Origin: a virus
DNA: 64,000 bases
IMG/VR virus record: IMGVR_UViG_3300021960_000030
Span: 1-64,000 of that record
Reading direction: 5' to 3' (one strand)
Positions 4,639 through 62,211 of the stretch are shown piece after piece. Under the pieces are notes generated by a model. It did not search any database. It worked only from the letters and a program-made list of their open reading frames with translations, and was not told the DNA's origin. Every line of letters starts with the position of its first letter. The first letter of the stretch is position 1. The position numbers were made by a program, and so were the translations under genes.

Positions 4639-7600
4639 TTAAGTAGCGAGTGCAATCGCTCTCATATCAGCAATAAGCGGAACTCTTGCTTGGTTCTTGG
4701 ACTTCAGCACCAACTTGATTTGGAAGGCGTTGAAGTTCAGACCATTGACCTCATATTCATAATCCTTCCAGAGGAGTTCTTCGGTGGGGGTGTCGTCGTA
4801 AACAATCGTTGACGGGAACGGAACCCAATCCACTTCTTCGGGTCTAGTAGAAGAACCAAAGGTGAACACCTTATAGTAAGGATAGATGAAGGAGTCCCCA
4901 GTTCTTGTAATCTGGAACGACAACTTCAAGGAACGAGACTCGTTAGTGAGTCTTGCAAGACGGGTGAGGTACACCGCGTCATTCTGATCACCAACAGGAT
5001 CGGTAGAGGTGTCAGCAGTGCTATCAATGTTTGCCTGAGAAGGAATAACAGCAGAACCACCTGGCCAGTAGTTGATACGGTTGGATGTAGTAATCAGAGA
5101 GCAACGATCAAGGTCAACCACAGGAGACAAGCTAGTGTTCTTTGTGGAAAGTTGAACTTGCATCGTCAAGGACTTGCTACCTTCCATCTTGTTGTTCTCA
5201 TTGATTTGAGAAGCAATCAATCTGGGAGTTGCGAAACTGTTCACTTCATTGAGAACGATTTCTTCAAAGTCGCCAGTGTTGATGAAAGATGCCTGGTCAA
5301 TGTTTCTTGAACCATCGCCAATCGAAGTTGCCGTAGTAGTATTTACCAAGGCACGAACGGTGGTTTCTGGCAGGTTCATAACCTTCAGTGTCGGGGTAAT
5401 GGTCTCGAACTGTACGTTCTGAGATGCAAAAACACCCTTACCACCGCCACGGATACCGTTGGTTGCAACACTTGCGGTGTGAATCATGTAAGTATCCAAC
5501 CACGGGCAGGAGATCTGCAGGTGTGTCTTGTTCAACTCTGTCAGAGGAATACCGTCAAGGTTGTAACACTCAACGACCGAACCAGCAGGGTGCTCAACAG
5601 CAGCAGTACCATCGGCACCACGACCAGAAGGAGCAACCGTAATAGTTTGACCAGTTGCAGAGATTGCGCTATATGCAATGATCTCATCCCCAATCTTGAT
5701 ATAACCAGGGTTGGTTGTTCCAACAGGTTGGTTATTCAGGATGACGTGGAAGGACAGAGCATCTTGGACAGCAATGTTTGTAGCGTCAGCAGCCAACGTC
5801 GATGTCAAAGTTGTGGGACTTATTTCGGATATGATGCCCTCAACGGTGATGTTGTTGCTGCGCTCATGCATACCATGGTTCTTATGGTATACCAACACTT
5901 CTTTCTCATCACTGTCGTAAGAGGGAGAAGCGGTAGGATACCCTGTACGGGAATCACCACTGTATGTAACACCAGCAGCAACGATTGTTGCAGTAACACC
6001 AGAGGTGTTGGAGATGGTGTCAGCATCAGTAAAGGTACCTAAGCAGAAGTTTGCTTCGATAATGCCCGATCCTTCATCGAAGGAAATCACGGTTGCCTCA
6101 GCGTCACCACCATTAGTGATGACTTGACCCACTTGGAACGCACCATTTTGCACCACAGAAGTAGTGATGGTTACAAGTGACTGAGAAGATTTGAATACGT
6201 TGAAGATGCCACCGCCTTGCTGGAGGAAACCAGTTGCGAATGTTCCTTCAATGTCATTCAGGGTCAATCTTGGGGTAGAACCAGTAGTGTCAAACTCAAC
6301 AATCGTACCTGCAGCATTGGAAGGATCCTGAATCAAACGTGCACCAACGGTAAACGTTTCGGTGAATGTTGGAGGAAGATCGATAATCTGCTTGGGTTTC
6401 AGAGTTTGTATTGGGTTCTCAATCAAGTTGTGAACACCACCATTACCTCTACCCAGTGTGCAGTTGTTGAACACTGCAACACCAGATGTAGGACCAAAGA
6501 TGCAACGGTTAATGCGGAACTTCAGGTCTTCATACTGGTCTGCTGTCCAGGTAGATGCGTTCTGCGACTTGAACAGAACACCAGCATACGGTTGTTCGGA
6601 GATCGTTCTTGTGCCAGAGACATCAACGTCACCCATTCTGGAGATCCAGACCTTATACTCGTTAGAGTCGGACAGGAGAACGAAACAATATTCTGTGGAC
6701 TGCTTAATATAAACAGGTGCACGGAAGATGAACTTGGTTGGAATAGCAGCGTTCTCAGATGTTTCTACCTGTGCAGGGTTCAGTGTGATATCCGAGAAGG
6801 GCAGAATAATGCCAGTCGGATAACCATTCTCCATGGTACGAATCTGCATGGAGATCGGAATGTTGCTGTCCTTGGTTGCAAAGAAAATGTCAACCGAGTT
6901 CAGATACATGCCACCTTCTTCATCCAGAATGAAGGACTGTGCCAGAGGGTCATACCAACCAATCTGGCGTGTCTCAGTTCTGGTAGAGACAACGTTTCTT
7001 GTGCTAGAAACAGTGTCACGAACAATCTCAGCGTTACGAACTGCCAGGATATTTTCCTGAACAGTATTCAGAACACCTCTTGCTTCGTAAGTTGTTTCTG
7101 CAGAAGAGTCAACGGTGCCAGGAAGTTTGCTGTTGTCGGCATTCGTTGTAAAGCGGAAGGTACGAGTACCAGTTGCGAAACGGGGGTTTGCATCCTCGTT
7201 GGGGTTCGGGATGAACAGAGTACCCGCAAGTTCACCAACGTTGTTAGAGATCAAACGACGATCCTTGACGACGGCACGAGCACCAGAGGTTTGACCGACA
7301 AGAACTTCACCAACAGCAATGTTACCGAAGAAGTCGGGGTTTTTGGTTTCTGCCAGAGCATCGGTATCGATGTTCAGAATATCTGTCTGCGATGCATAAG
7401 ATTCAGGCAGAGCAGAAGATGTGCCAGTGTAGGGGTTGAACTGACCACCATCGTTGGGTTGGGCAACCTTCAAACGGCAACCAGATCGAGAACCAATCAC
7501 AGTCTCACCCACAACAAACGGAGTTTCGTTGGTGTTGGGATCTGCAGCAGAGTTCTTCACCAGTTCGATGATCTTCGGCAACATGTAGTTGTTTACATTC

Positions 7601-18563: not shown

Positions 18564-18571
18564 TATTTATT
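18564..18571 (-). promoter_or_regulatory. Probable late promoter (AATAAATA)
   Basis: ATAAATA core overlapping the stop of the giant gene, 10 nt upstream of the YHYH gene. Confidence 0.55.
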
Positions 18572-21500
18572 GTGCGAAGATAGACGAGGGAACGAAGTTG
18601 GCGATCACGGTTGCACCCGTCTGTACCTTAAGGACAGAGGAGTTGGAGTAGACAGGTGTTGCGCCTGCGTATGTGATTGCAACTCTATATTCATCACCAT
18701 CATCACCCTGAATGGTGCTGCTGGTTGTGTAGATGGACTGGTTAGCACCGATGATGTTGTTCCAATCCGTTTCACCGTAGTTCTTCTTCTGCCACTGATA
18801 GTTCAGACCCTCGGTCACGCCCAGGGGATCGCCATCAGCAGCGTTGAACACTGCGATCACGTTGAACACTGCGGTTTGACCCTGGTTCACGGTGATGTTC
18901 AGAGGTTGACGTGTGATCTGGATTGCACCCGATTCGATGGTGATTGTTTCACCAGTGGTGGCGTCAATCGCCTCACCCGCGTAGACATCGAAACCACCGT
19001 TGATCGGAGCGCCCTGAGGCGTTGTGAAGTCATCGGCAACCGTTGTCAGAACGCTGACTGTAGGCAGTGCATAACCAACACCAGGGGTCTTAACTTGGAT
19101 GCTCGCGACACCCATTTGTGCACGTACGCGACCGTCAAAACCACTGGAGGAGATCACGTCCACATTCGGGCGTGTGGTGTAACCGTTGCCAGGGTTGGTG
19201 ATGATTGCTGCGGAGAGCGTACCTTGGCGAATGTTAGCCAACGCGGCAGCGTTGCGACCCTTGACTGTGCCTGTGTACTCGAAGGTAACCAGCGAGTTGG
19301 AGGATTCAATCAGAGCGACCTCACGAGGTTCCAGTTCGTTTTCACCTTCGATGAAGAGTTGGTCACCTGCTTCGATCGGGGGAACGACGGTTGCAGCAAT
19401 AACGTCCGCGTCAGAACCGATGTAGCTGAATGATACAAAGGTCGTGCCTGCGCGAGGAATCTCAGAGAAGATGATACGAGAACCAACGATTTCATAACCA
19501 ACGCCAGGTTCCTGAATGATGCCGTTGAGCGAAACGATGATGTTGTTCTCAGGCAGGATAGTGTTGGAAGAAACACCTTCCGTCAGGGTCAGGGAGTAGA
19601 AACCACCCTGATACTTGAGGTTGAACGAGGAGCGGAGCGAGTCAAACTCAAAGCTGATATCATCCAGTTGACGGAGTTTACCGATGTAGTAACCGATGAA
19701 CTCAGATCCAACTTCAGGTGCCTCTGTGAACGTAATCTCGTCAGAAGACGCGGTGTACGCGGCAGCAGCGCCAGGAGGTTGAAGGATGCCGTTCACGAAG
19801 ATCAGCATGTGACCTGCGGGGTCGGGCAGATATTGCTCACCGTTAGCGATGGTCAGTTTGAAGGTTGTTTGAGAACCATCGAAACCACGGAAGTAGCGGT
19901 TGACACGACCAATCAGATCGCGTGCGAGAGAAACACCTGCCTGCCAACCACCATCAGAAGTGATGGTCATGTTGGTCAGGAAGTCGCCCACAACTTCTTC
20001 CAACCAGCAGCGAGCAGTTGTACCTGTTTGCTCGATCTTGGCGATCTTACCGTAGGCAGAGTAAGTGGTTTCAACGAAGTTGCCCGAAGCAAAGATCAGC
20101 GGGAAGTTGTTGAGGTTTTCAAACTTACCAACGTTGTAACCGCCAGCACCGAATGTGTTAATCGGCAGGTTGCCGCCACCAGTTTGTACAGGCGAGGTGA
20201 GGTAGAGATCATTGATGCCATCATTGGGGCGATTGTCCCACTTGGAGACAGTTGCCGTGATGCCAGGTACCGCAATGGTAGTGCCTTGCAGCAGATAGAC
20301 GGTATCACCAGAGTTGAAGTTACCTGTGTAACCCGTATCGCGTGAAACGCTAGTGAGGGACAGTTTGTAGACTTTCTGACCGTGCACGTATGTGTTGACG
20401 GAGATTGCCTGACCGTTATCCTCAATACCAACCAGATCGAGGTACTTATCTGTGACGGAACCGTAGATCACATCACCAGGCGTCCATGCGCTGTTGATTG
20501 TCTCAACGTCCATGGTGATACGACCACCACCCGTTCCGATAAGAACACCACGCTTGTCGTTATACACGTCAATGTATGCTTCGGTAGCGGTGTCTTTCTT
20601 GAACAACCAGTCACCCTGAGTGAAGATACCCGTCTTGGTGTTCAGCAGCAGACGATCTTCTGCAACTGCCGTTACGGTTGCGGTTGCACCCGAATCGATA
20701 CCTTCGAGGATATCTCCTTGAGAGATAGTACCCTGCAGGGTTTCAATCTTGATCCAACCGTTGTCAAACTCGTCGGGAGTGACGTGCTGCATAACGTAAC
20801 CGTTGTTGCCTGTGGAACCCTGAACCACGACTTGCTCACCATCGATGAATGTAGTCGTGGACATTGTTTCAAGACCATAGTATTTGAAGGTCTTAACAAC
20901 TTTTGCGTTATTGATAAATGTAGATGATACTTCAGCAGAAGTACCAGTTGTTGTGCCCACGAGCACGTCAGCGATATTAAATCCAGCAGAAATGGGAGTC
21001 TGGATATCGCGGATGCCGAAGTCGTTAGTGACGCGAGTAACACCTGCACGACGAGCAGTAAAGAACTGCTGGTTACCTGTGTTTGTGGTATCAAGAGTGA
21101 AGTCACGGAAGCGAGCATCATGCTTGGGCATACGGGAGATTTCAAACCACTGTGCCTCAGCATTGAGGACGTAGTAGAAGTCTTGATCGTTTGCACCATC
21201 CAGAGAAGTTGCAGATGCCAGAACGTACTTCAGAACATCGCCACGGCGGAAGAAGTTGGTACGGTTGATGCGTACGCGGTTTTCTTCACGCTCCCAACCA
21301 ACTTCGATTGTCGGTGTGAGCAGAACCAGAGCGGGATCTGTGTTGTAGTCTTCACCTTCGTTGTAGGAGTTGTTGAGGTTTTGAACGTCAGTGGAAGCAA
21401 CGAATGTGACCACGTTATCCGAGGGGAATGTGCCACGCTCGATAGCAAACTCCAGGCAGTTGAGCGAGGAGTCCATGTTGAACTCGGTGCTCTCCTGATC

Positions 21501-24500
21501 CCACTCCAGGCGAGGAGTATAACCTTGGACCTGTTCAGGACTCCAAACATCGTACGGAGTCCAGGCAGGATTGTCAAAGTTGAACATCACATCCTTCGCG
21601 TACTCACGAACCTTGTTCATGCAGTACAGGAGGCGGATTCTCTGGATAGTGGGGTAAGCGATGAAGTTGCCTTCGCCGTCAAACCACTCATTTGCAAGTT
21701 TGAATGCACCTGCGTTACCGCCAGTAGCGATGTCATAGATACATGCTTCAAGAACATCCTGGGCATATGCCAGATCAGGAATATTGCCAGAAGGATATTG
21801 TGCCAGGGTTGCTGCCACAGCACGACCAGTAATCGCGTGATCATTCTTGCGAATAAACTCTGCAGTCAGGCGGTTCGAGTAGGAACCAGAACCCAGACTA
21901 TCCAGCATCAGATCAAACAGAGTCCATGCAGCATCAATCACGTTGTAGCAAGTGTATTGCTGATACAGAGTGTTAGTAAATCCGTCTGTGGGAACTGTTC
22001 TGGTGATGCTTTGCAGGTAGTTGGACGGGGAAGATGCACTTGCGTCGGTGATTGTCTGCAGAACGATATCAAACAGATCGTTGATAACAACTGCGACGTT
22101 CTGGCAAGTATTACCCCAAGAAGATGCCGACTGATCGTATGTGATTGTAAGATCACGCTCAGCAGAGTCGGCGGTGTACTTCATCGGCCAGATTGTTGGC
22201 AGAGTACGAGTAACGCCACCCAGAGTGGTGTAGTTGGTGATTGTGTCGGTAACGATGCCGAACAGGTCGTTGATCGAAGACTCAACGTTTGAACATGCAC
22301 CACCACCAGGAGGAACCGTACGGGATGCGTGGTTCATGTTGCCATTCACCACAGCGTCGGTAACGATCGACAGCAGCGTTGTAGCAGCAGAAACCTCAGT
22401 CGGACATGCGGGTTGGGTCACGTCAGCAGTGATCGTGAGATCTCTGTACTGAGTCAGAGTTGTGCGACCTGCTGCATTCCAGGAGTTTGCTGCAACGGGT
22501 TGGATGTTACGGATAACATCGGGCAGGATGCTGCTGTTGATGTAGTTGAAGATCGCCTGTGTCCAACCGTTTTGGGGAGAACCGATGTGACCGTTCTGGA
22601 CATACTCGTTTGCGTAATCCCAGACGTAGGAGTTACCGCCGTAAGCGACGTGATATGCAACACCCTTCAGGATACGCTCAGTATCATCGATACAGGAGAC
22701 GGTGCCGTTGGGGATTGTCCAACCATTAGTTGCCACGAAGGTATTAACAACACCTTCTGCAATCCAGCGAGCGTTGTTGTAGATCAGATTGTATGCGTCA
22801 GCAGCACGGGAGCGGTTTGCAGTAGTGCCACCAGTCAGAGCATTCTCGTCCAGAGTCACATAGTCGCGGGTTCTGAACTTGTAGGGTTCGTAGTCGAGTT
22901 CGTCATAATACTTCTGCTCAAACCCGTGAACCTCGTTACCAGTGTTGATAACGGGTACTGCACGCATGACCTGAATCGCAATGTCGCGTGCCTGATTGAA
23001 GGCATACACAGACTCGGTGGATTGAGATGCAACGTGCTGGAGACCTGCAGTGCCCACATAGAACTCAGCAGCGTCATAGACCATGTTGTTGCCGCCGTAC
23101 TTCATGTTGAAGACGATTGCATTCAGGGTATCTGCGATGTCATGAACACAGTTGATGTTGCCACCAGGGATCACGAGAGCAGGATACTGAACGGTTGTGC
23201 GATAGACTGCTTCCTCAGCGATGAAACGGATATTTCTGTCAAGGATGTTTGCAGCATCAACATAGCGAGATGCAACACCGTTCTGATCGTAGGACTCAAC
23301 GCTAGGATCATTTTCCTCACCAGCCCCATAGCCATAGATGTTATCGCGTCCGAATCCGTTACGCATTGCGAGGATACAAATATCTCTCGCCATCTTGTAT
23401 GCGTAGATGGATGCTTCTGCCTCACTTTCGATGTGGCGGAGGGAGTTATTTTCGGGTTCGATGTACAGTTCAGCAGCATCGTAAACCTTGCTGTTTCCAC
23501 CCAGGCGAATGTCATGGACAAGTGCCTCAATGAAACCAACAACGTCATCGATACAGTTTTGCTGACCGCCAGGAATCTGCAGATCTTGGAACTTAGCGAG
23601 GTCATTCATTCTCATGACTGCCTCAGTTGCAATCTGCTTTTTGTTCCTTTCAATCATGTCTGCTGCATCAATCAGCTGGTTGTTGTCAGCACGGTTGGCG
23701 TTGTAACCCTGAGGATCAACAGTAACACCGTGATCAATGTAAGGAACCTTTTGGGTATACTGAGCGATGTAGTAATCGTCAACATTTGTAGTACCCTGGG
23801 CAGGATTGGGTGCCTGACCGAACTGAACAAGCAGTTGGTTGATTGCTTTGGTGGAGAGGTACTTGGTGTAAGAGATTGCATCCAGCATCGGCAGCAGTTC
23901 TTCGCTGACGTGGAGGATATCTTGCTCACCATTCAGGTAGAAGTCGATAACTTCGTTAACTGCAGCATTGCCACCTGTGAGCAGGTCAGCGATGATTGCA
24001 GGAATGATGTACTGCTTGATATCGCGGATACAGATCTGACCGTTGTTACCACCAGGAATCTGCAGTTTGTCGTAGTAGGTACCGTTGATGGTAACTTCCC
24101 ACTTATTCTCAATGTAACCAACGACTTCCTCAGCGATGTAATCTCTGTTCAACCACAGAGCATCACCAGCGTCGCGGAAGCGGTCGCCCGTAGGTGCGAG
24201 GATGTTCAGAATGTTCTGAGTCAGTGCGTCAATATTGTCAAGAACTTGCTGAGTAGCAGCAGTACCAGTTAGAGGAATACGGAGTTTTTCGCTGTAGGTA
24301 TCTGTAAGATCCGTGTCTGTAGTGGTGACAACATACTTACAAAGTTCACCTGCTTGTTCCCATGCGTACAGGGATTGCAGAAGTTCTTTGCCGATAAACT
24401 CAAGACTTCCATCCTTCTCCAGGTAACCCTTGGCCGCGACGGTTGTGTAATAGTCGCCGCCATACTTCAGATCTTTGATGATAGCGTCGAGAATAAACTC

Positions 24501-27500
24501 TTCAGTATCACGGAGACAGTAGTATGTGCCCTGATAGGTATTGGTTGCAGGATCGTCACCAGGCATCACGAAGTCGGAATACTTCGCCTTCATGCGACCA
24601 ACAGCGACCTCAGCGATCCACTTATCGTTCTTAAGAATGAGATCTGCAGCATTGCGATGAGAGTCACGACCCAGGTCGATGTCCTCAACAATCACACGCT
24701 TGTCTTCGTAATCGATTCTCTTGGCAGTTGCAGAGGATACTGTCTGACCACTGAACTGAGCATAAACCTCAGAGGTGGAGACAATAAACGGTTGCTCCGC
24801 ATTCAGACCCAGAACGATTCTTTCATCATCCCAGTTATTGCTGGTAGGTGCAGTGAATCCTGCAGTGTACTTGGCATAACCCTTGTAGACTGCAATCTGA
24901 TCAGCGTTACCGATGAATCCATTGGAACCTGTCAGGTTAGAACCAACGTAGCAAGGACCCCAACCGAAATCATCGTTGTTTGTGGCACTACCACCTGCCT
25001 GAACACCATCCACGTATGCGAGCATCACTCCAGATGTTCTGACGACTGCAACGTGGTGCCAGGTGTTTGCAGTGAATACCGCGTTGGAGATGATCACAAG
25101 GTTGCCAGAACCACTGTAGACACGCAGAGTGTCATTGTTAATCTCAACCATCAGACCTGTGCCAGCAGTGCGACGCAGATCAAACAGTGTTTGCTGACCA
25201 ACAATACCAGTCGGATAGAACCAACCTTCCAGGGTGAAATCGCCTGTGCCGAAGTCAAAGTCATAGGACTCTGCTTGCTTCAACCAGGAGTTTGCAACAA
25301 ACTTCAGAGACTTAGTGCTGTTTGCCAAGTCAGTCTTGACGTTCAGAACACTCTGAGTAACTTGTGCAGCACCAGGGTTTGTGAGAGTGGAGTTTGTGAT
25401 GTACTCATCGGCAGCAAATGTGCCACCAACGCCTGCGCTGGTTGCGAACAACCACTTCAGACCAGAGTTCACGCCTTCCAGAGACATGGTTGTTCCAGAA
25501 GTCACGCCACGGACATTATCAAGTCTGTTGAACAAACCAGTGGACTTGTTCTTGTATGCAATCTTAATGACACGAACAGTTTCACCATCTCTGAAGGAAC
25601 CATCGTCGATGGAGGACAGAGCGTTGATATTTGCAAGTGTTTGATTGTTGATTGCAGTAGTTGCAATGGTTGTCAGAGTATCGATAGTGGACTGAACGTC
25701 AGCACAGTTTGTATCGGACTGATTATTACCATTTGCATAGTTGACATCATAGTCATGACCAGGAGCAGTACCACCGTAGGATGCGGGATCATTCAGGATT
25801 GTCAGATCTTTTTCATACAGCAGGTTGTTGATTGCTCTCTTAGCGAGATCGCGTGCCTTGTTTAGAGCAGTGATGGTTTCTGCTTCTTCACCTGCAACGC
25901 CATTGCTAATGAATGTGCCGTTCTGGAAGTAGAAGCGTGCCCATGTAACAACACCCAAGTTGCCACCCTGACCAACGTCAGATGCAAGACCATCAACGAA
26001 GTAACCAACGTCACGACGGCACTTGTCCTCAGTTGCATTGTAGGAGGGTTCTTCGGGATCGATATCCTCAAAGTCCTGATTACCAAGAAGTGTTTCGGTG
26101 ATCGCTGTCGCCAGAGTATCAACTGCAGCACGAACGTCTGCACAAGCAGCAGTATCAGTGTTGCTGATCGTGCCAGGTGCACCATATGTAGCGCCACCTT
26201 CGGTAACGGTCAGATCTTGATACTTGGTATAGACCACAGCATCGATTGTCTCTGTGCCGAACAGTTGGTTTGTGATGGCATCTGCCATGTAATCTGCAGC
26301 ACGTCCGTATGCCCAGGTAGTCTCGGCAAGTTGTTGGTTGATGTAACCAAGTCCTTGAGATGTGTAGTACATCTGGATGAACTTGCGAGCATACTTATTA
26401 CCACCTGCATACATGTCATATGCAACTGCATCGATGAAGTGACCCAGGTCACGCTTGCACTTATCAGAGTTAGGTACCACCAGAGAGGGGTACTGCAGGA
26501 TCATATCTTGATAGGTCTTAGCAACAATCCAAGACTTGTTCTTGATTACCAGACGATATCCATCACGGAATCTAGAACGAGGATCGGTTTGAGGTTGACC
26601 AGGATAGTAGAAGTCTTCATGCTCAACTGAGATTTCTGCAGTTGCGAAGTCAATGATCTCATCCTTCGATGCTGCAATACGATTTCTAGCATCATAGTAG
26701 CGAGGTGCAGCGGTGCCGTATGCAGCACCGTAGATTGGGTTGTTATAGAAGACCTTGATGTTACGGATCTCATCGCCATTGCCAAAGACGCCGTTTGTAA
26801 GGTTGGTGTATGTGACCTCAGAAGAGCGAACTTCTTCAAAGTCAAGGAAGTAAGCGTTGATACGCTCTTCATCATCAAAGAGTTCTGTAGGTGTGATTGT
26901 GGACTTGGAAATGTCGTCCAGCAGGATGTTCGGATAGCTGGTGCTAACGATACGCTCGAAGAGCAGACCATAGAAGGAGGAACCAGCAGTCAAGATCTGC
27001 TCACCAACAACGTCGTTGGTAACGGGATCTCTATAAGGTGCCAGGAATGTGATGCGTGCTGCCAGGCTGGAACGAGTGGAGTAGACGATATCCTGCAGAC
27101 GGAAGTCAAATACGCCAGTCTCATACTTAGCAGTACCAGTTGTCTTGCTAACAACGATTGCACTGTTGGGATCGCCATTTTCATCCAAGTTAATCGCGTT
27201 GACCTGGGCAGTCGGGTTGCCACGGGAGCGATTTGTGCAGACCAGAGTTTCATCAAACTCATACAGTGTGGACTGTGTGAGAACGGTTTGAGAAGCAATC
27301 AGTGCACTGAATCCGAGAGCGGAAACATCGATTCTTTCGTTATTTTGGAAAGGACCGCCAACGATTGCGACAATATCGATTGTATTGGTACCCGATGCAA
27401 CAACAGTTCCAAGAGCATCGCTAGCAGCACCAGAGACTTGATAACCAATCTCAGGATAGATGCCAGAAACATCAGACAGGTTCAAGCGAGTAATGGTCAA

Positions 27501-30500
27501 GAACTCAAGACCCACATCACGATAGACAACCTTAGAAGGTGCCTTCGGTGCTTCCTTGAACACAATCTGACCACCAACTACATCATATGCATCGACAGGT
27601 GCCTGAATGATGCCGTTCAGTGTGATGAGCAACTGGTTGTTCTTAACGATAACCTGCTCGCCCTCAACCGTCAGGTTGAAACCAGTCTGAATACCGTCAA
27701 ACTCACCAGAGATATCATCAAGTTTCTTAACGATAGAGGTGAGGATTTCCTCAGAGTTGGTCAAACGCTTCTTACGGAAGAGAACTTCAGTATTGTTGAA
27801 GTCTGAGTAGATGGGTTGAGCAGCACCGAAAGATGTAACTTGGTTAACGTTGGTGTACTCGTTGATGTTCACCTGTTTGATGAACTCAGTACCAACCTTA
27901 CGACCAGAGATATCCTTACCGCCAGTCAGTTGAAGCTGACCGAACATATTGAAACCAGTCGGGTGGTTGTTCTCAAGGATTTGCTCACGCCAACGGTTGA
28001 TGGGAATCGTGGACTTAATAACGTAGGAGAAGTTCTGATAGAAGTAAGAGTCCTGAATCTTCTGAACGATTTCGGAAGGCTTACCAACGTCATCGATGAA
28101 CTTACCAGGAGTTTGTGTCAGGGAGTCAATATTCAGAACGCCCTTAGCAAGGGAAACGTTGTCAATGACGCCAGATGCACGAGACACAGAACCATTAACA
28201 CGCTCACCAACAACAAAGTTGCCAGTAGCATTTACGAGTTTCAGGATCTTAGGACCAATCTGCCAACCATTGTTTTCGGAAACGAAAGCAGTGACGGTTG
28301 CATCTTCTTCACTATCGCCTTGGTAAACCTTTTCACCCTCAAGGAAGCGAGATGTTTCGACAACTGCCTTTGCTCTACCACCGAATACCTCAGTAAGCAG
28401 AACTTGGCGACCAGCACCTTGGGTCAAGAATGTGATGAAGTTACCAGACTCAGCGTCGGCAGGAGTCAGTGCAAAGCGGAGTTGATCACCTTCCAGAGAG
28501 TTGGTCTCACCAGCAATCGCATAGTAGATCTGACCCACCACCAAACTGGTCAAACCAGCAGAACTTGGTTTCGGCAGTTCGCCAACAGTATTACCCACAT
28601 CATCTGCACGGAACTGAACAGCAGCACCGTTAGTAATGCCGTGAGGGAAGTTGAACTGCAGGTAGTTCAGGTCGAGGTTAACGACGTAGTTGAACTCAGA
28701 CTTCAGAGTCACACTGGGTTCCGAAGAGTAACCAGCACCAGGATTCTTGATCTGAATCTCACTCAGACGGTTGTTCTTAACGATTGCAACTGCTTCAGCA
28801 CCAACACCACCACCACCTTCGATGATAACCGCAGGAGCAGAGGTATAACCAGCACCAGGATCAGTGATGGTGATTTGGGACAGAATGGAGGTATTGAAGA
28901 GTTGCAGGTTGATCGGGAAGGTGATCTCAGGTTTCAGAGTGTAGTCATGGGAATAACCATAACCAAACTCATTGTTCTTGAGTTTCTTGATCTTACCGAT
29001 GTTCTTACCTGTCAAGAAGACAGATGCACCGCTACCCTCATCGGGAATGATGACACCCAGGTCAGCACCAGAACCAGTCAGTGTGGGACCAAGGATGCCT
29101 TGGATACCATCCACATCGACGGTTGCAACTGTGTATCCTTTACCAGGATCGGTAACTACAACGCTAACGATTGTGCCAGAACCGATTTCTTCGTCAACTT
29201 CAACAGTGATGCGGCAGAGACCACCTTCACCATCACCATTGATGGGTACTTGATCATATGTGCCGATAGCATATTCAGAACCACCAGACAAGATCTCAAC
29301 ACGTTCAATCTGACGGAAAGATGCAATGTCGGAAATGATGGGCAGTTTTTGATAGAAACCACCAGCAGAGATCAGTTTGATGTCTGCAATAGGACCGATT
29401 GCTCTCTTGGATGTGGTGGAGTAATCGGAGTAAGGACGATTCTGATCATCGCTTCCAATCTCAGCATTAGTGTTCTCAGGTTCAAAGTCCAGAGGGAACT
29501 GGAACTCATTTGTAGAAACAATGCTAGAAACCTTATATGTTCCATCAAACGGTGTCTTCTTAACGTCGATGAACGAAGTACCACCCACAGGGGAGTTAGC
29601 ACCAGTTCTGGACGGGTCAAAGTAGTAGGAGATGTTAGTAACCTGACCATCAACCTTAAGTTTGACAAACGGAGCATTTGTTCCATCGTAAATACCAGGG
29701 GTGCCCTGACGTTCGATGTTGTTGAAGGAATACTCCAGTTTGAACTCGTTATCTTGAGAGAATGACAGATAGTAACCAAGGTTGCTGCTGTCGCTCATGT
29801 CAAACACATAGTTGTGGTTTCTGATGAGCAGCAGAGTGGGGTGCTTGGTGTAGATGTTTACACGAGCAATGCTGTTCTGCAAGAATCCTGGTTCGTTTGC
29901 AGGAACACCACGTACTTGGAAGGTAAAGTCTCTGGAGGAGAACACTTCCTTAACGAAGAAGGAACCGTTAAACTCGCTAGTGCTGAAACCTTCTGTGAAC
30001 AGAATGTCATTTGCTGAATATTTGTGTGCACTGTTAGCAACACAATAAACGAGGTCAGTTCTAGTCTGAGTTTTAACTAGGATTGTCTTATCAAGAACTG
30101 CAACCAGGGAGATCTGCTTGACGCTACCAACACCATTGATTTGAAGAATGGTGGGTGCATCTTCCTTAGGATTGACAGTAACAGAACCGCCGATGCTCAG
30201 GTTGTCATTAGCAATGAAGTTAGAATCGCTGTAGATCTCATCAACAGTGATGGAATACCAGTTTTCACCAGCATCAAACTCCTTAAAGGTTGCATAGTCG
30301 CTCAGAGGATCATATGTCAGAGTATGCTCCCACTGAACTGTACCGTCAGTCGCGGTGCCAGTAGAGTGTGTCGGAGGATTCTGGGAGGTACGACCTGCAC
30401 CAACACAGGTATACTTGTTTCTACCGTAGTAGACAACAGCACCGATGTCATAGATTTTGAGTTTTTCCCAAAGAGGATCCTTAGGAGTAGGATATGCAGT

Positions 30501-33500
30501 ATTTGCAAGATCTACTTCAATCGGAGTATTGCCAGTTGTGGTAAAGTCCCAAGAAACGCCACCATCGCTTGCATTGCCTGTTGTGTGGACTGGTTCATTA
30601 GTACCAGCGGTACCGTTGGTGCTCGCTGTGTAGATATTGCCTGCCGAGTAAACTTGATCACCAGCAATGTAAGAAGCAGCTTGCTCCCACTCAGGAATAT
30701 CACGAGCAACGGTGAATGTGATGCCAGCGATAACATTCAGACCAGTGTCAGTTGCACTGGTGCTTCTGATCTTATCAGTGAGGTTGAATGTTGCTGCAGC
30801 GGGGAAGATATTACCGATCCTGTAGGTTGTGCCAAGACCAGGATTCTCAATGGTCCCTGCAGGAATCTCAACGATAGTGCCGTAACGCTGGGTAGTACCC
30901 TGATCGTTGTACTGTTGCAGGATTTCGCCCTTAGTAAAGCGGACTTCCTGATTAAATGTCAGTTGTTGGACACTATCAATCTTCTGATATCTTGCATCCT
31001 TGATGTAATACTTCGGTGTTACAACAGGAATCAGGACAAGTCTCTTTCCACCAGGAGAAGGAACAGTAGAAGTTTTAGATCCATACAGAACTTGATCATA
31101 GTCAAATGTATAGATACCTGTCTGGAGTTGACTTGTAACCTCAGCATAATCGAGGATTTGCAGACCACCAGGACCAATCGCCCAGGTAGACATGAGGGGT
31201 TGTGTCTGGTTGTTGTAAGTCCAGTTTCCATCCGCAACAAATGCTACAGATGTGGAGTTGGGGAGATCAGTTAATGCAAATGTTCCACGACGATCGTGCT
31301 GTCTGTCGATCTTGTAGATAGAAACGCCAGAGTTGGTTGTTCTAATCGGAACTGCTGCAGTGGGCAGAGTGAACGATGCACCACTGTACTGACTGTCATC
31401 ATCGATTACAAAATCATCGATGTTGCCCAGAAGTGTAGTATAGGTTGTAGGAACCTTGATACCGCCGACATATACTTCATCGATGCCGATGTTTGTTGTG
31501 CTTCCAGACCACAGAGCGAGTTGCTGACCATTGACATAGCAAGCAAAGTCATATGCACCCAAGGTGGGTTGTGTCTTAGACAGAGCAATATGTACCCATG
31601 CATCGGCGGCAAATGTTGCCCAAACGGTAGCAGAGACAGATTCGGCAACTACATTGCTACCCTGCCAAAGAAGTTTCAGTTTTCCGTAAGAAGCACTGCC
31701 ACTGTCACCATCAACAAACAGTCTCAGAGTGTTGGAAGGATTGCTTCCATCATTAGGATGTGTCTCGAAGAATGTGGGTTGAGAGTTGTTGAGAGACTGA
31801 GTTGCAGTATCAATACGGAACCAACCCTGCAGAGTCCACTCAGAGGTGTTCAGATCCAGACTGGTAATACCGTAGTGGTTTGCTGCTTCCAGTTTTGTAG
31901 AACCAGTACCCCACTTATATGCAACTGCATCGATAGATGCATCGGTTGCGTTGTAGTATTGGGGTGTACCACGATTCAGTTTGGTCTCGTCAAATACATT
32001 GATTGTAGTTTGGACATCAAAGGTAATGTCAGAATAACCATATCCACCAAGTTGAGAATCGGTTACAGTCAGGGTGTTGCCAATCAGATAACCACGACCC
32101 GTCTTATTCATGCCAACGGTAACGATACCATTAGCAGCAACGTTAACGTCCAGAGTTGCATTAACACCGTTTCCACCAGCAGCACTGATATTGCTGTATG
32201 TGATGTCCTGCAGAGCTGCTACAGCAAAGGTCAGGTTGTTGCCACCAAAGTTGCCCAGTTGAGCATCGGTGATGGTGAAGGTATCTGCAACTTGATATTC
32301 TTGACCAGGGTTGTTAACAACGGGGGTTGCAAGACCAGTACCGTCAACAGTGACGTTGAATGTTGCATATTGACCCGTGCCATTCGTGGTTGCCGAGACA
32401 TTATTGTAGGTATGACCCTGAATAGATGCCACAGTCATTTGAAGATTGGGTGCACCAGTGTTCCCCAACTGAGAGTCAGGAATGGTGACTACATCATTCA
32501 GAACAAAGTTTTGTCCACGGTTGACAGGTGTCAGTGATGTAAAGTTGCCAAGATTGTCAAGAGTGATATTGAAAGTTGCACCAGTACCACCACCAAATCC
32601 ATTGTTTGTAGATGTCCAGGTAGAAATACCAGAGTATGTGATGCCATTTGTAGCAGTCACATTGAATGTGAAGTTTGCGGCACCTCTGTTGCCCAGTTCA
32701 GAATCGGAGATGGTGACAGTTTCACCAGCAACAAATCCATTACCAGTGTTAGTGATATTGACAAGAATGATTGCACCACTACTATCAACAGTGATGGCAA
32801 ACTGTGCTCCAGTACCAGAACCAGTAGAGGTGTAGTTAGATACGTTGTAGATTGCACCACCACCAACAGAAGAAACCTCGGCAGTGATATTAGAAGCACC
32901 AGTATTGCCAACGTCAGCATCAGCGATTGTGATTGTATCGCCAACAACATAACCATTACCAGGACTTGTAACGTTCAGGAACGCAACAGAACCATCTGCA
33001 TTGATAGTTACCTGCAGTGTCAATCCAGAACCAAGTCCATTGGTTGTTGTTGCAACGTTGCTATACAGAGGAGGTGCCTTAATCGTAGCAACATCAAATG
33101 TAAGGTCTGCAGCACCACTGTTACCCAGTGAACTATCTGCAATGGTAATGGTGTCACCAACTGCATACGACAGACCAGCAGGGTTGCCAGATACGACAGA
33201 TGCAGCACCAGAAGCATCGATAGTTACATTGAATACTGCTCCAGTACCAATACCAGTTGTAGAAGTTACAGGAACATTGGTATATGTCGAAGGTGCAGTG
33301 ATTGTTGCAACATTAAATGTCAGGTTCGCCGCACCATTGTTACCCAACAGAGTGTCACTAATCGTGACTGTATTACCTGCGGCATAAGCAAGACCACCTT
33401 GATTGACCTGTACAACGGTAGCTGCACCAACACCATCGATGGTGACATTAAATGTTGCATTTACGCCAACCCCATTGTTTGTGCTAGCAACGTTGGTATA

Positions 33501-36500
33501 AGTAAATCCACCAACACCAGCAACATCAAATGTTGGGTCGGGAGCACCAGAGGCACCGATATTGCTATCGGAAATCGTCAAGGTCTCTCCGTTGTAGTAA
33601 CCAATACCACCCTGATTAACTGTCAAGGAAACGTCACCAGTCGAGGAGATGCCTACATCGAAAGTGGCACCAGAACCAGTGCTGTTTAGATCGGTGCTAG
33701 TTGCGGGGACGTTAATGTAGTTGAAACCACCAATAGCGTTGACTTGGAACGTCAGTGCAGGTGCACCACCGCCACCCAGTTGGGAGTCCTGAACAGTGAT
33801 TGTTTCATTGATCGCAAACGAAATACCGCCACCAGTAACGGTAATGATACCAGCACCAGATCCATTAACAGTAATGTCGAAGTTTGCACCAGTACCAGAT
33901 CCAGATGTTGTGTAAGATACGTTTGTATATGTTCCAGCAACTCTGGAAGGATTGGCAGCACTCACGTTACCAACACCGAGGATATTACCACCACGGAGAG
34001 CATTAGCAGCAGAGATGTTTGCCATCAGGGTGACGCGACCACCTCTTGCTTGGTCTGCACCACTGATGCTATTCACGGATGCGATAACACCACCACGTCT
34101 TGCATCTGCAGCAGAGAGGTTATTAACAGCGTTAACTGCACCACCACGTCTTGCCTCAGCACCACTGAAGTTGTCGAGGGCAATAACGGTACCTGCACGA
34201 ACAACATCTGCAGAACTAAATCCACCAACGGTAGAAATCTTACCTGCACGAAGAACATTGACAGCAGTGGAAGTTGTCAGTGTACCAATGTTTGTCGCTC
34301 TAATCTGCTGAGCAGAAGAGATAGATCCAAGACTACCAACACCAGCACCGCGAGTTGCAGTAATGCCAGTAACGTTGTTAATGGCAGAAATAAATCCACC
34401 AGTACCCTCAGAACCATCAAAACGATATGCTGCCACCTGATCGGACTTTTGCTTCTGACCAAAGATGATCAGGTCGCCAGAATCATCAACCGAGTGGGTT
34501 GTTGCCTGTACACCAACAGTGTCAACATCTTCAATCGTGCTTTGCTTAAGAATGGTGCCATCAAACTTGATGTAGTGTGCAGCAACCTTTCTTACATTCT
34601 CAGCATACTTGGTATCTGTAACCAGAGTCACATTGCCAAAAATATCAATCTTGATGTCAGCATTCTTGATAGAAACGAACTGGGTGCTAGGAGCAAGTGT
34701 CTTATACCAAGACCAAACGGGTTCGTTAGCATTGATTTGATCAACACCCAGTCTAGCAATACCAACAGCAGAGTTCTTCTGGAGGGCATTGTTGAAGATA
34801 TCAAAGGTCAGATATACATCATTGTAGCTATCCATGGTGAACCGAGGATTCTGCGGTCTACCACCAGAGATATTGATGTTCTTAGCGTAAGAGAGTTCAA
34901 TGTTGTTACCATCAAAGAAGAACTCACCAATGATGATGTAATAGTCGGACATGTTCATGCCGACAAACAGATATCTAGCGTCACCAAGATGCATGATCTG
35001 GTGCATACGCTCATCATCACCAGAAGAGGAGAACTTACGCTTCTCTCTCATCTCACCGTCTTCATTCATCTGAATGACCCACATGTCATCGGGGTCAGGT
35101 GAGTTAGTATCGGTATAACCGCAGAGGTATACTCTTTCTTCTTCGCCAAGAGTAACACCCATCGCATAATCGCGACGAGTTGTACCAGAGACGCCAGAAA
35201 TCTCTTTCTGATATCTTACTTGCCCTTCAGGTTGGTTTGCATTGTCAAATGCAGACTCATACTTGACAAGGAGAATATCGGGTCTGTTATTAGCATTGTC
35301 ATACTCTGTTTCACCAACAACATAGATGATGTCGTTTTCTGCACGCTCATCAAGGTACATTTGCTTGAAGCGAGCAGTCTTGACGTTACCATCGTTGGTT
35401 TCAAGAGTGCGATCCCAGATCAGATCACCAACATCGCTAAACTTGGCAATCCAGGCACCAGTTGTGCCATCAGGTTTGGTGACAGAACCACAAACGTAGA
35501 CATAGCGGAGGGAACTTGTCAGAGAGTGATTGACGTTGAATACGCCAAGGGTTTCTTCACTCTGAGTGGTTTCTCTGTACTCGCCAGCATAGTAACGAGT
35601 TTTCTTGAAGATTTGGGGGTGAGAAACGCGAACTTGGGGAGGATTCTCAGGATCGTAGCTGTTACCAGAGTTGACGATTTTGATTTGAGTATCAGTGATC
35701 TGACCAGTCTGGGTAACGTTGATATTGAATACAGCGTCCTTACCAGAGGTCGTGATCAGTTCATATGACGGAGGAATCGATTCGTTGTAACCAACACCCT
35801 CCTGATCAATGACAATATCCTCAATACCAGAAACAACCTTTGTATAGTATGTCTTGTTGGTATTATCGGGGATAACTGCAGATCTGACGATTACTTCATC
35901 GCCAACATACAGTTCATGGTTGCCATCGGTGGTAATCTTACCGTATACAATGTCGTTCTCGATGACTTTTTGATATCCGAGGATAGTGAGACCTTCCACG
36001 GCAGAAACCGCAGCAGAAGCACCAAAACCACCAGATCCCTCGTTATTGAAGAAGATAACGTCATCTACCTGATAAGAAACACCAGGGTTCTCGATAACGA
36101 ATCCGTCAATCTGAGCAGACTCGAACTTAGTGATAGTTTCGACTTCAATGTCAACTCTAGACTCGTCAGAAACGGTCGGGAAGTAATCGTAGATTTGCAG
36201 AGTCGATTCTTCGGACAGTTCAATGACTTCCAACTGTTCATTGGAGTCAATGATGCCATCACCATTGGTATCTTGGATTTCCAGAACCAGAGGGTATGCC
36301 TCAAGTTCTGTAGTCAGAATATCTGGTTCTCTGTTGGGTTGACGGTCAACATCGATATCAACTTCAGTGAACGGATCGCGGAAACGGACAACATCGGAAG
36401 GAATATTATCCTGAGTCGCATTCTGACTCATATTCCACTGATCGGGTTGAGAATAGAACTCAGGACCCAGAATGTAGGGGAATACTGCTTGACCAGCGTC

Positions 36501-39500
36501 AGACTCGTCAATAGTTACAAAATATGCATAGGTACCATCGGGATACTCTGGTGTCTTACAGAAACGACCGTTGTAGGGGTCCAGATCGCCCAGTTGGAAG
36601 GCATATTCATAGTCATCAATGAATGTACCTGCAGGATACTGACTCAGTGGAGGACCATCACCACGAGTCGGATTCGGATTGGAATCTACCTCATAAACCA
36701 GTGCAGTCTTCTGACGATAGGAAGAACGCAGTCTTCTAAGACCACTATTTTGGTCTGTGGGATCAATATATCCATAAGGACCGTAAATCGGGTTGCCATC
36801 ATACGCCCAACCAAGAATCGGGGAGTGCTCATTGTTAGCAGTCTGTTCTTGGAATGTATTTGTTGCAGGATCCAGGAATACGTTGTCACCAACCACATAA
36901 CGCAGTTCTTTGGGGTCAACGAGGTGAGCATACTCACCACCAAACTGGTTGTTGTATCCAGTGAAGACATAACCTCTAGCAAAGTCATATTTGTCTGCCA
37001 GATCGTAATGCAAGTTCTTTGTCCACTGGAAAACGTTGGGGGAGAACTGTGCAAACTCACCAACTGCATTCAGACGAATAGTTGTATTGCCTTGAGTGTA
37101 GTTAATACCTTTGTTGAGGATTTGGATGCTAATAACCTTACCCTTATCTTCACCAATGGTGCCAATAACTGCCTTTGCAATAGCACCGAAACCATCACCA
37201 TTGATGACGACGTTGGGTGCAGTTGTATATCCACTACCAGAGTTAATGATAGCGATAGAGACAATGCGACCATTGATAACGATTGGTTGTGCAAGAGCAC
37301 CAGAACCAGAGTTCAACTTAATGGTCGGAAGGTCGGTATAACCAGAACCAGCATTGGTGAGGCTTACTGCAGAGATAGGACCACGAACACTAGCGGTTGC
37401 AGTAGCACCCTGACCGCCACCACCAGTGATGGAGATGATCGGTTGAGAGGTATACCCAGTTCCAGGTTGTTCAACCAGAACACGACTTACTCTTCCACCA
37501 GTGATAACTGCTTGTGCTGTAGCACCGATGCCACCACCACCCACAACAGATACCAGGGGTTGAGTTTGGTAACCAGAACCACCGTTGGTAACTTCAATGC
37601 TAAACAGAGAACCATTAACGGTTACTTCTGCAGTTGCACCAGATCCACCACCACCTGTGATCTCCAGTTGAGGTTTATTGCCTGCATCGTACCCTTTACC
37701 ACCATTAGTGATGTTAATGCCCGTCAGAGGACCATATCGAAGGAACTCAGAGGACTTATAGGACCATACCGAAACACCATTGACCCATGCACCAACGGCA
37801 CTATTCGACTTGATAGTTTCACGCTTAGAAACCGTAGTTACCTTTCTGGGGAAACGCAGCAGTTTACGCTGGTTGCCAGGGATAAGTGCTGTTCCAATGA
37901 AAGGACCAATCTTGTAGTTTGGAAGACCCGTTGCAGCAGCATAAACATACTGTGCATTAAAGAACGAGTTTTGGATGTTGCTGGTAAACGGTGTAATCGC
38001 AGTATTGATCGCAGTAACGTCAGACTTACCACGGTTTAGGTCAACCGACAACAGAATATTGCCCTGAGGAACAATATTTGTAGGAGCAAGCATCTGATAA
38101 GAGAACGTATACTCGTCAAGACGTGCTGTGACTTGGAAGGTGCCGTTATAGACAGTTGGGTTTGCACCATACACTGTCACGTTATCTTCCACCAGAAGAC
38201 CGTGAGGATTAGATGTAACAATGGTTGCGGTCTGATTATTCTGACCACCAGGAGTTACAGTATCAACAGCGATAAGTTTTTTGACGTTATACAACCAAGA
38301 AGACAGTTTTTCGTCCTGATCGGTAGCACCAAGAGATGCAACAGTCAGTTTGTCGCCTTCAAGATAGTAGGAACCAGTATCATCAAGAGTTGTGCTTCCT
38401 GCCTCAGCAATACCCAGAATACGCAGTTTGCACTGCTGAGCAGTGCCATAGTTGACGTAAACGTAGATATCAGAATATACAACGGTGCCAGGATCCCAAT
38501 CCTCTACAACACCGTTCTTGGAACGAGTACATTCGATGAACTGGTTCAGAGAACGCTCTTTGTATTGAACAATCTCTTCGTCGTTGATACGAATGGTACC
38601 GTTTCTTGCTGGCCAACCAATCGTAGAGTCAACTGTAATGATCTGATCGGTTGTGCTCAGGAACTCAACAAGTTTCGTCTTGTATGGGATGATAAACGTG
38701 CCCTGCAGGGTTTCTTCAGAGATAGACAGTTCATAAATGGTGTCAGTACCCTTAATGATCGAAATAACGTTCTCGATCAGTGCAGAGGCGGAAGTTACGT
38801 TGATATCAACCTCATCAGGAATCTGTACCAGCTCACCGTTGATCAGATCGTTGGGATTACCTTCAATAAGGGTTGCACGGAGGATTGTGTCAACAACCCA
38901 AGTAGCAGCAGAGGGAGAAATGACTTCATCGCGAGGATAATAGACATCGATCTCTTCACCAAAGAGAACTTTGAACAAGAACTGGGTTGCAGTCTTGGTA
39001 CCCTTAGATACATAGAAATCTCGAATACGCTTGATAACCTGAACAGGGTTTACCTTTGTGTAATCGAGTTGAATGGTTGGCAGGTATTGACGACGGATCT
39101 TATCGAAGATCTGACGCAGGAATAATGTATCAAGAGACGTAACAGTCGCACCAGCAACGTGATTGCTGAGTCTGAGTTGTCCTTCTGTTGCAAAGATTTG
39201 GTTTCCTACGTTATCATAGGTGATTGTTCCGCTGGTGCCACGCACACAGCCCACCAGAGCAGACGGTTTGTAACCGTTGCCAGATGTGTTGATTTCAAAT
39301 CCAGTAACCTCATCGAAACCAATATCTACCGATGCTCTAGCAGCAGAAGGTTCAGCAATGTAGATTTTTGGAGGGAAGTTGGTATCGTATCCTTCACCAA
39401 AGTTGGTGATACTAATGTCAGTGATCTCACCGTTAAAGATAGTTGCAACTGCAGTTGCACCTCTACCACCGATCGGCAGACCAGCGGCATCTTTGCGGTC

Positions 39501-44786: not shown

Positions 44787-45320
44787 TCAGGCGGACCAGA
44801 CCGTAGCAGATCCCCATGCAACAACAGAACTACACGGATACGACCAACCAGGGAAACCAAGCCCCAGAGGATCCAGCATTCTGCCAACTGGCAGTTTTAA
44901 TGCAAAGACCGTGAGTGTAGTTGTGAACAAAACTCTGGGGTGACCTACACCACCCGCATCTTCAATCGTCAAGATCGAACATGGGATCGGTGTTGGAAAC
45001 GGACAGATGTTAGGACCGCAGGGGCACATGTATATAACAATGTTCGTACATGCACTCCAGTGGGGAGTGAACGTATCCCCTAGCAAATAGATTGGAAGGA
45101 AGTGTACAAGTACAAGTGCCCTCAAAGGGTTGAGAGCAGTCAGTGGTACAAGCGGATATGGTGGCCACCAGCATGTAAGATCTTTTACTTTGATCGTATA
45201 TGGGATTGGCGGACTACTACAACCCTGAACCGAGTGAACGGTAGGTGGCAAGCACAGTCCGTGACCACTACAAGGCAGTGCATTATGCGCTGCAACAGGT
45301 TTTAGAAATCCATATGCCAT
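44787..45320 (-). CDS. PAAR-like spike tip protein (gp5.4-like), Cys-rich
   Basis: CSGHG, GDTFTPH, GHPRVL..TVFALKLPVGRMLDPL and CSSVVAWGSATV follow the PAAR three-motif pattern with His/Cys metal ligands. Confidence 0.75.
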   Translation of the reverse strand: MAYGFLKPVAAHNALPCSGHGLCLPPTVHSVQGCSSPPIPYTIKVKDLTCWWPPYPLVPLTALNPLRALVLVHFLPIYLLGDTFTPHWSACTNIVIYMCPCGPNICPFPTPIPCSILTIEDAGGVGHPRVLFTTTLTVFALKLPVGRMLDPLGLGFPGWSYPCSSVVAWGSATVWSA

Positions 45321-61560: not shown

Positions 61561-61796
61561 TTTTCAGTGGGTTCAAGATGTAATGTAGTAACGATCTCAT
61601 GAATCGTAGCACGTTGTTTAGGACTGATGTCTCCCTGCCTTTTATAGAGGTCAGAGAGTAATAGTAACATTGCCCTCTTAAGTAATCCTTTTGCCTCGTG
61701 ACTAAGTTGTGCTGACTTGAGGAACATCGGTCTCGTTCTCCTTACGAGTTTCGTAGTATTGTCCGACGATAGTGACACGGTTGCCCTTGAAACCAA
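61557..61796 (-). CDS. Small hypothetical protein (true start probably the internal MFLKSAQ)
   Basis: Fills the gap between the lyase and an oxygenase; ATGA overlap downstream. Confidence 0.55.
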   Translation of the reverse strand: MVSRATVSLSSDNTTKLVRRTRPMFLKSAQLSHEAKGLLKRAMLLLLSDLYKRQGDISPKQRATIHEIVTTLHLEPTEK

Positions 61797-62211
61797 TCGT
61801 CTGTCGTAATCTTACCGTGTCATTATGTAAAAGTCGAATCTCTTCACGAAATCTTTGTTTTCCATATTCTGTATCAAAGAGGATAGTATCCTCATCAATC
61901 ATAGTTACATCAGTCATGGTGGGACTGGAGGTCATATATCCCTGAGAGCGATACATCTTCCCATCCTTACTATTGATTCCGACAAGCATCTCACCAGATG
62001 AAGCAGGTTCACCTGAACTATATTTAACAGTTTCCCATCCAAACTTTACATAATAGTCACTGTGGACATCTTCTGGGATGACTGCTTTCTCAGCATCATT
62101 TAGTTCACCAACGAGGAGTTCACTGGTCATGAGTTCTGCACTCTCACCATACAAATATCTACGGTGGGAATGCCATTCACCTTTCGATCTATCGAACCAT
62201 TGTGTAATCAT
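61702..62211 (-). CDS. Phycobiliprotein (bilin) lyase, CpcS/CpeS (S/U-type, CpcV-like) family
   Basis: WFDRSKGEWHSHRRY, GKMYRSQGY, TEYG..FREEIRLL..RLRQT and GQYYETR match the S-type lyase pattern FF.S.G.W.S.R / G.L.R..GY / T.Y....EE.....R.R / E.R. Confidence 0.75.
   Translation of the reverse strand: MITQWFDRSKGEWHSHRRYLYGESAELMTSELLVGELNDAEKAVIPEDVHSDYYVKFGWETVKYSSGEPASSGEMLVGINSKDGKMYRSQGYMTSSPTMTDVTMIDEDTILFDTEYGKQRFREEIRLLHNDTVRLRQTIGFKGNRVTIVGQYYETRKENETDVPQVSTT

Follow-up and report, generated by a model that had tools for sequence, protein, structure and literature searches.

Why should the baseplate of a virus contain relatives of the phycobiliproteins, and could the virion that carries them be pigmented? 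The question is raised by a window of 64,000 bases (positions 1 to 64,000 of IMG/VR virus record IMGVR_UViG_3300021960_000030, which is 111,864 bases long with a CheckV completeness of 63%), in which one uninterrupted frame of a marine T4-like cyanophage encodes a giant gp7-like baseplate protein of 7523 amino acids. Sequence profiles and predicted structures together identify aa ~4800-6520 of this protein as a tandem array of eight domains of host-type phycobiliprotein ancestry. The closest isolate at the DNA level is Synechococcus phage S-SZBM1, covering 4% of the query. To our knowledge no photoreceptor pigment has been described from any virus particle, and full-text literature searches yielded no account of phycobiliprotein-like domains in virions.

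The giant baseplate protein and its eight units

The unit borders come from a hidden Markov model (HMM) that was made from the repeats and then iterated across 80 giant proteins; models 1 and 2 and the VIA-align (VIA) comparisons named with some of the units are described in the next section.

18567..41138 (-), giant gp7-like baseplate/virion structural protein, 7523 aa in an uninterrupted frame (PHROG and Pfam matches)
26088..26729 (-), unit 1, predicted complete phycobiliprotein fold with helices X, Y, A, B, E, F, G and H, aa 4804-5017 (model 2, VIA, PF00502, phmmer)
25821..26147 (-), unit 2, aa 4998-5106, Cys5040 in CRRD (HMM envelope, model 2 secondary structure)
24318..24662 (-), unit 3 core, aa 5493-5607, Cys5541 in CLRD (HMM, model 1, VIA)
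23832..24182 (-), unit 4 core, aa 5653-5769, Cys5703 in CIRD (HMM)
23355..23678 (-), unit 5 core, aa 5821-5928, Cys5862 in CIDD (HMM)
22956..23267 (-), unit 6 core, aa 5958-6061, Cys5997 in CVHD (HMM; PF00502 17.4 bits)
22503..22808 (-), unit 7 core, aa 6111-6212, Cys6149 in CIDD (HMM)
21879..22421 (-), four helix-H-like helices, each started by a Cys, aa 6245, 6282, 6345 and 6397 (helix motif, sequence only)
21576..21875 (-), unit 8 core, aa 6422-6521, lacking a Cys84-like Cys (HMM)

An earlier note, made from the DNA letters, had proposed about eight phycobiliprotein-like domains in the giant protein, and the HMM does delimit eight tandem units, at aa 4856-6521. The seven C-x-x-D motifs of that note have their Cys codons exactly where it put them (26457-59, 26019-21, 24516-18, 24030-32, 23553-55, 23148-50 and 22692-94, corresponding to aa 4894, 5040, 5541, 5703, 5862, 5997 and 6149), and the eighth unit has no Cys at the motif position, as it had also said. 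Each of the seven motifs is followed some 15 residues later by GG(N/D). In unit 1, whose HMM core is aa 4856-4958, the Cys84-like residue is Cys4894 in CKRD, and helix H is capped by Cys4999. The six further Cys-started helices described in the note are likewise present (aa 4999, 5145, 6245, 6282, 6345 and 6397), in a position like that of beta-Cys153/155; units 1 and 2 and the four extra helices appear to carry a Cys capping helix H, in what would be the beta-Cys153/155 position. To judge from model 2, unit 2 appears to borrow the Cys-capped helix H of unit 1 instead of having A and B helices of its own.

The description of the protein as a baseplate component, already given in the note, holds on several grounds. 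PHROG virion structural and baseplate wedge families match it (E = 0), while Baseplate_wedge (PF23786) reaches 24.9 bits in the N-terminal part, slightly below its cut-off of 27. Among isolates, its relatives bear the annotation gp7 or "baseplate wedge initiator". Upstream of the giant gene lies a gp6-like wedge gene (41144-43213), downstream lie further wedge and fibre-connector genes, and the neighbourhood also includes gp9/10-like genes. In all, 79 giant homologs of the 7523-aa protein were found; a search with a 779-aa segment matched two relatives, both at 93%.

Evidence for phycobiliprotein ancestry

Against the C-terminal 2857 aa of the protein, PF00502 ("Phycobilisome protein") gives E 3.9e-15 (56.6 bits, cut-off 22.2). 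Unit 1 passes the cut-off by itself, at 26.9 bits; five other units have sub-threshold scores of about 13-17 bits and match no other family, and the remaining units have no hit. When the eight-unit profile was compared with all PDB sequences there were 135 matches at E up to 10, and the 60 that were listed all belong to phycobiliproteins or bilin-binding fluorescent proteins, with phycocyanin alpha in first place (E 3.9e-5). The HMMER alignment superposes the phage K-C-x-R-D...GG on K-C84-A-R86-D87...GG of the phycobiliproteins, and unit 1 alone, searched with phmmer, matches phycocyanin alpha with the same Cys84/Asp87 alignment. The suggestion in the earlier note that the motif is equivalent to Cys84/Asp87 is supported; seven units keep both the Cys and the Asp.

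Two AlphaFold2 models were built template-free from alignments of phage orthologs only, in which fragments from the window were aligned with whole giant homologs. Model 1 (aa 5456-6234) has a mean predicted local distance difference test score (pLDDT) of 66, with unit 3 (model residues 37-150) at 80-94, and model 2 (aa 4800-5135) has a pLDDT of 80 and a predicted template-modelling score of 0.82. Model 2 begins with an X-Y hairpin (model residues 5-40), followed by helices A, B, E (with Cys4894), F, G and H; Cys4999 stands immediately before the helix at 201-218, which is aligned at helix level with the C-terminal helix of phycoerythrin beta, and unit 1 and the partial unit 2 are packed together.

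In agreement with the note, comparison of the models with known structures gives the phycobiliprotein fold for both. With Foldseek, a probability of 1.00 is given for model 1 solely to phycobiliprotein chains, with template-modelling scores on the target of 0.53-0.66; the Foldseek E-values are weak (0.02-0.5) because the queries are multi-domain. With VIA-align, unit 3 of model 1 superposes on phycobiliprotein beta chains with Z 16-17.3 and a root-mean-square deviation of 1.8-2.8 Å over 130-150 residues, model residues 33-193 pairing with chain residues 31-172/177, which is the entire globin part including helix H. In an unbiased VIA search of model 2 against 48,161 representative chains the top eight entries are all phycobiliproteins. 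The best is phycoerythrin beta (Z 16.3, deviation 2.5, 147 residues; model 52-219, chain 29-184) and the second is the bilin-binding domain of ApcE (4xxi_A, Z 14.1), while sensor globins, RsbR and photocobilins rank below the phycobiliproteins, at Z of about 10. The units are accordingly genuine relatives of the phycobiliproteins, and not globins or helical repeats of a generic kind; on the evidence of sequence and models, they have both the signatures and the fold of the family.

Chance or compositional resemblance between helical repeats and phycobiliproteins might be argued from the Foldseek E-values of 0.02-0.5 and from the fact that all units other than unit 1 fall below the Pfam cut-off. 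The combined PF00502 E-value and the PDB matches listed, exclusively phycobiliproteins or bilin-binding fluorescent proteins, put the resemblance far beyond chance. With the Foldseek probability of 1.00 for phycobiliproteins only and the VIA Z-scores of 16-17 at the top of an unbiased search, the Pfam, PDB profile, Foldseek and VIA results together refute this explanation, whose probability we regard as negligible.

Distribution among phages

A tblastn search of 50,697 phage records with units 3-7 matched 366 records, all of cyanophages, Synechococcus and Prochlorococcus phages included, and the proteins matched are named gp7, baseplate wedge initiator, structural protein, tail fibre or short tail fibre. 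The matches in BFVD are cyanophage "tail protein" or "tail fiber-like" entries, none of them named after phycobiliproteins. When the profile was run exhaustively against 1.84 billion representatives, 1240 proteins matched at an E-value of 0.001 or lower; the majority of the matches listed are large proteins (730-7903 aa), and they contain as many as 35 units. Some metagenomic giants of about 6000-6800 aa have 34-35 phycobiliprotein-like units in one protein, against the eight found here. The domain is present in most isolated T4-like cyanophages, and the family is restricted to the giant structural and fibre proteins of cyanomyoviruses.

Conservation of the putative attachment sites

Conservation was scored over 535 distinct instances of the domain, taken from 80 giant proteins. 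It is highest at the Cys of the motif (87%), Asp(+3) (89%), Ala(+10) (82%), Asp(+14) (87%), G-G-N (81-88%) and a Tyr (87%), with Arg(+2) kept in 59%. In ortholog alignments of 19-26 sequences at 38-65% identity, Cys and Asp are invariant in units 2-5; K-C-R-R-D of unit 2 is unchanged in 19 orthologs, the helix-cap Cys4999 being invariant as well, and C, R and D of unit 3 are unchanged in 26 sequences. In unit 6 the Asp is invariant and the Cys nearly so, and in unit 1 the Cys is not invariant. The helix-H-like motif was defined from its second residue onward; a Cys comes before it at 146 of its 210 occurrences in the 80 giants, and the units of S-PM2 and P-HM2 retain both the C-x-x-D-type motif and the helix-cap Cys. 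These alignments indicate strong conservation both of the canonical attachment motif and of the second Cys, in its beta-155-like position.

The main rival to a role for these residues in pigment attachment is that a fold captured from the host has been reused, free of pigment, as a helical building block or oligomerisation module, the Cys, Asp and GGN serving folding or packing. Arrays of 22-35 units in fibre-like giants are what a structural repeat would show; the B-E loop is shortened and Arg86 often replaced, unit 8 is retained although it is without the Cys, and units 1 and 2 seem to have a helix in common. A pigment-free scaffold fits less easily with the finding that a single unpaired Cys at the chromophore position is, with Asp87, the most conserved element of the family, and that a second conserved Cys would occupy the other classical attachment position. 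We consider it somewhat unlikely.

The cysteines might also have another chemistry, forming disulfides after release into oxic seawater or binding metal together with the Asp residues of the helix face. The four helix-cap Cys at aa 6245-6397 are closely spaced and could pair, and the Cys, Asp(+3) and Asp(+14) share one face of helix E. However, there is one conserved helix-E Cys per globin unit, with no conserved partner Cys within the unit, and the motif is the C-x-R-D of phycobiliproteins and not a known metal site, so that this explanation seems to us very improbable. That the cysteines of the units carry bilins, we would put at about an even chance.

Bilin lyases

Among the bilin lyases, the S/U types act on Cys82/84 and the T types on beta-Cys153/155. 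Both kinds of site appear to have counterparts in the giant protein, and a gene for an S-type enzyme is found in the window:

61702..62211 (-), CpeS-like (S-type) bilin lyase, 169 aa (PF09367, E 9.8e-15, 55.2 bits, cut-off 23.3)

A CpeT-like (T-type lyase) gene is located in the same virus record beyond the 64,000-base window, at ~84.2-84.7 kb. The CpeS-like lyase is a possible partner for the Cys84-like sites. Its relatives occur in only 15 phage records, annotated as S-type lyase or cpcV, and cpcV-type lyases have been described as confined to cluster C cyanophages and S-CBWM1 (PMC10665884); in contrast with that scope, the genome encoding the CpeS-like lyase here has a T-type CpeT as well. 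The CpeS-like gene is flanked by two 2OG-Fe(II) oxygenase genes and a JmjC/cupin gene (60323-61560 and 62695-63387, (-)), and a 2OG-Fe(II) oxygenase gene also adjoins cpeT in the same record.

Co-occurrence of units and cpeT was scored with the unit profile and PF06206, supplemented by PMC3037559 Table 3 and PMC10665884. Both are present in P-SSM4, P-HM1, P-HM2, P-RSM4, P-SSM7, S-PM2, Syn9, Syn19, Syn33, Syn1, S-ShM2, S-SSM5, S-SM1 and the source genome, and neither is present in P-SSM2, S-SM2, S-SSM7, S-CREM2 and S-H34, a concordance in 19 of 19 T4-like genomes, with the cpeT calls for P-HM1, S-ShM2 and P-SSM7 resting solely on PMC3037559 Table 3. That table was used for S-ShM2 and P-SSM7 because PF06206 missed their divergent CpeT. 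In Syn1 (NC_015288, 19938-20477) a cpeT is annotated (Syn1_028; PF06206 E 1.5e-35), yet the table shows none.

The tight association of the domain with cpeT is a further point against a pigment-free scaffold. In S-PM2 and Syn1 the two are also close on the genome, in the order cpeT, 2OG-Fe(II) oxygenase, giant "short tail fiber" gene with units, gp12. The RefSeq record of S-PM2 (NC_006820) has 16 tRNA features inside the coding sequence of this giant "short tail fiber" (165928-177267), in which the frame is open for 3792 aa; they probably result from wrong coordinates or locus tags. The role of phage bilin genes has been called a mystery (PMC3037559), and reviews and genome papers interpret the phage lyases as an aid to host light harvesting.

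Light-dependent adsorption

Adsorption of S-PM2 requires light; P-HM1 and P-HM2 likewise fail to adsorb in darkness, in which P-SSM2 and the podovirus P-SSP7 still adsorb (PMC6628666). Light-dependent adsorption was found there to be independent of host photosynthesis, and light-sensitive receptors or tail fibres were named as unexplained possibilities (PMC6628666). Units are present in P-HM1, P-HM2 and S-PM2 and there are none in P-SSM2 and P-SSP7, so that their presence matches the published light dependence in 5 of 5 phages; the sample is small, and its phylogenetic coverage is uneven.

As the earlier note suggested, the units may have an antenna role and may sense light. The cysteines would receive bilins (phycoerythrobilin, phycocyanobilin or phycourobilin, made by host or phage) through thioether bonds during assembly in the infected cell. 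Attachment could be catalyzed by the phage T-type lyase CpeT, here perhaps also by the CpeS-like lyase, by host lyases or by an autocatalysis like that of ApcE, and the released virion would then bear some 7-13 bilins per protein copy at the baseplate. More speculatively, absorption of light by these pigments would change the state of the baseplate or fibres, and some cyanomyoviruses would for that reason adsorb only in the light. The lyase genes, the co-occurrence and synteny with cpeT and the match with adsorption make chromophorylation and light sensing more plausible. The full proposal, that virion bilins on baseplate and tail-fibre units are the photoreceptor for light-dependent adsorption and that CpeT mainly chromophorylates phage structural proteins, is bolder than that of bilin attachment, and we hold it to be unlikely.

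The units could also be chromophorylated and have no part in gating adsorption, the bilins serving as a photoprotective screen or quencher or as a cofactor that stabilises folding, or being a by-product of host lyases. Bilin binding is known to stabilise phycobiliproteins, which are normally rigid antennae and not typical photoswitches, and the correlation with phenotype covers five phages only. But the units belong to the host-recognition apparatus, in baseplate and tail fibres, and phages that bear them adsorb in a light-dependent manner without host photosynthesis (PMC6628666). A pigment that does no sensing appears to us decidedly improbable.

Besides the rigidity of phycobiliproteins as a class, several observations tell against bilin attachment and light sensing by the units. 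Of the 7 Cys-bearing units only 4 have an equivalent of Arg86, and by the gaps in the alignment the B-E loop ahead of the Cys lacks about 7 residues of its counterpart in phycocyanin and phycoerythrin, so that the bilin pocket may differ. T-type lyases classically serve beta-Cys153/155, not Cys84. In a tree of gp6-like proteins the five genomes lacking both cpeT and units fall into two clades; two joint changes, possibly one, therefore suffice for the concordance in 19 genomes, and the association is suggestive and not strong. A general co-occurrence of S-type lyases with units was considered and rejected, as S-CBWM1, S-CRES1, S-CRES3, S-CREM2 and S-H34 have such a lyase and no units. P-SSM2 has no units despite having pebS and ho1 (PMC3037559), and neither pebS/pcyA (PF05996) nor ho1 (PF01126) was found in the source record, which is 63% complete.

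Two old cyanophage puzzles, light-dependent adsorption and the phage bilin lyases, would become directly testable; genes for the latter occur even in phages of Prochlorococcus, which lacks phycobilisomes. The family is large, numbering at least 1240 representative clusters, and as many as 35 copies occur in one protein. If the units do carry bilins and sense light, this would be relevant to the diel dynamics of infection in the ocean, because the domain is present in most isolated T4-like cyanophages, and the units would offer a new set of compact bilin-binding scaffolds.

Other features of the window

Besides PF00502, the Pfam domains of the giant protein are YHYH and Laminin_G_3:

~36500-36950 (-), YHYH domain inside the giant baseplate protein, aa 1399-1544 (PF14240, E 1.1e-29)
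24882..25262 (-), Laminin_G_3 (ConA-like) domain between units 2 and 3 (PF13385, E 4.1e-17)

A 531-aa protein encoded downstream has a PHROG match to another YHYH-like stretch. Upstream of the baseplate cluster, a 177-aa protein (44787-45320, (-)) has a PAAR-motif PHROG match (phrog_281), and farther on the gene for a phage tail lysozyme-like protein (PF18013; 57987-58478, (-)) adjoins a ResIII/DEAD helicase-like gene (58484-59722, (-)).

Comparison with known systems

Like T4 gp7, the giant protein is encoded after a gp6-like gene and has its baseplate wedge matches in the N-terminal part. It is about seven times longer, however, and the YHYH and LamG domains, the repeat blocks and the phycobiliprotein array are absent from T4 gp7.

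Of the phycobiliprotein subunits (PF00502), C-phycocyanin alpha is closest to the units by sequence, and phycoerythrin, phycocyanin and cryptophyte beta chains are closest by structure. The likeness extends to the predicted fold, with both the X-Y hairpin and helices A-H present in unit 1, to the QYP..L.IPGG loop, the K-C-x-R-D on helix E and the GG that follows it, and probably to the Cys-capped helix H. The phage units differ in being fused head to tail, eight in a 7523-aa virion protein, where the known subunits are free proteins of 17-20 kDa, and the GGN and the extra Asp of helix E are specific to the phage family. The full-length B-E loop that covers the chromophore in the known proteins (with Asn72 in beta subunits) is absent from the phage units, whose loop is the shorter one noted above.

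In ApcE, too, a large protein of several domains contains a phycobiliprotein domain. Its bilin is attached by autocatalysis, and a lyase is for that reason not strictly needed. ApcE has one such domain plus linker repeats and is intracellular, whereas the phage protein has eight, on a virus particle. The BBAGs, described as bacterial fluorescent phycobiliprotein paralogs (Rockwell et al. 2023, as cited in PMC11480375; PDB 8u0f), resemble the phage units in having the phycobiliprotein fold outside phycobilisomes, and 8u0f_C is tied with the top structural matches of model 1 (Z 17.1). They are the weaker match by sequence (E 0.023 vs. 3.9e-5 for phycocyanin alpha), and they are small cellular proteins encoded beside bilin-synthesis genes, in contrast to the array of units in the giant baseplate protein.

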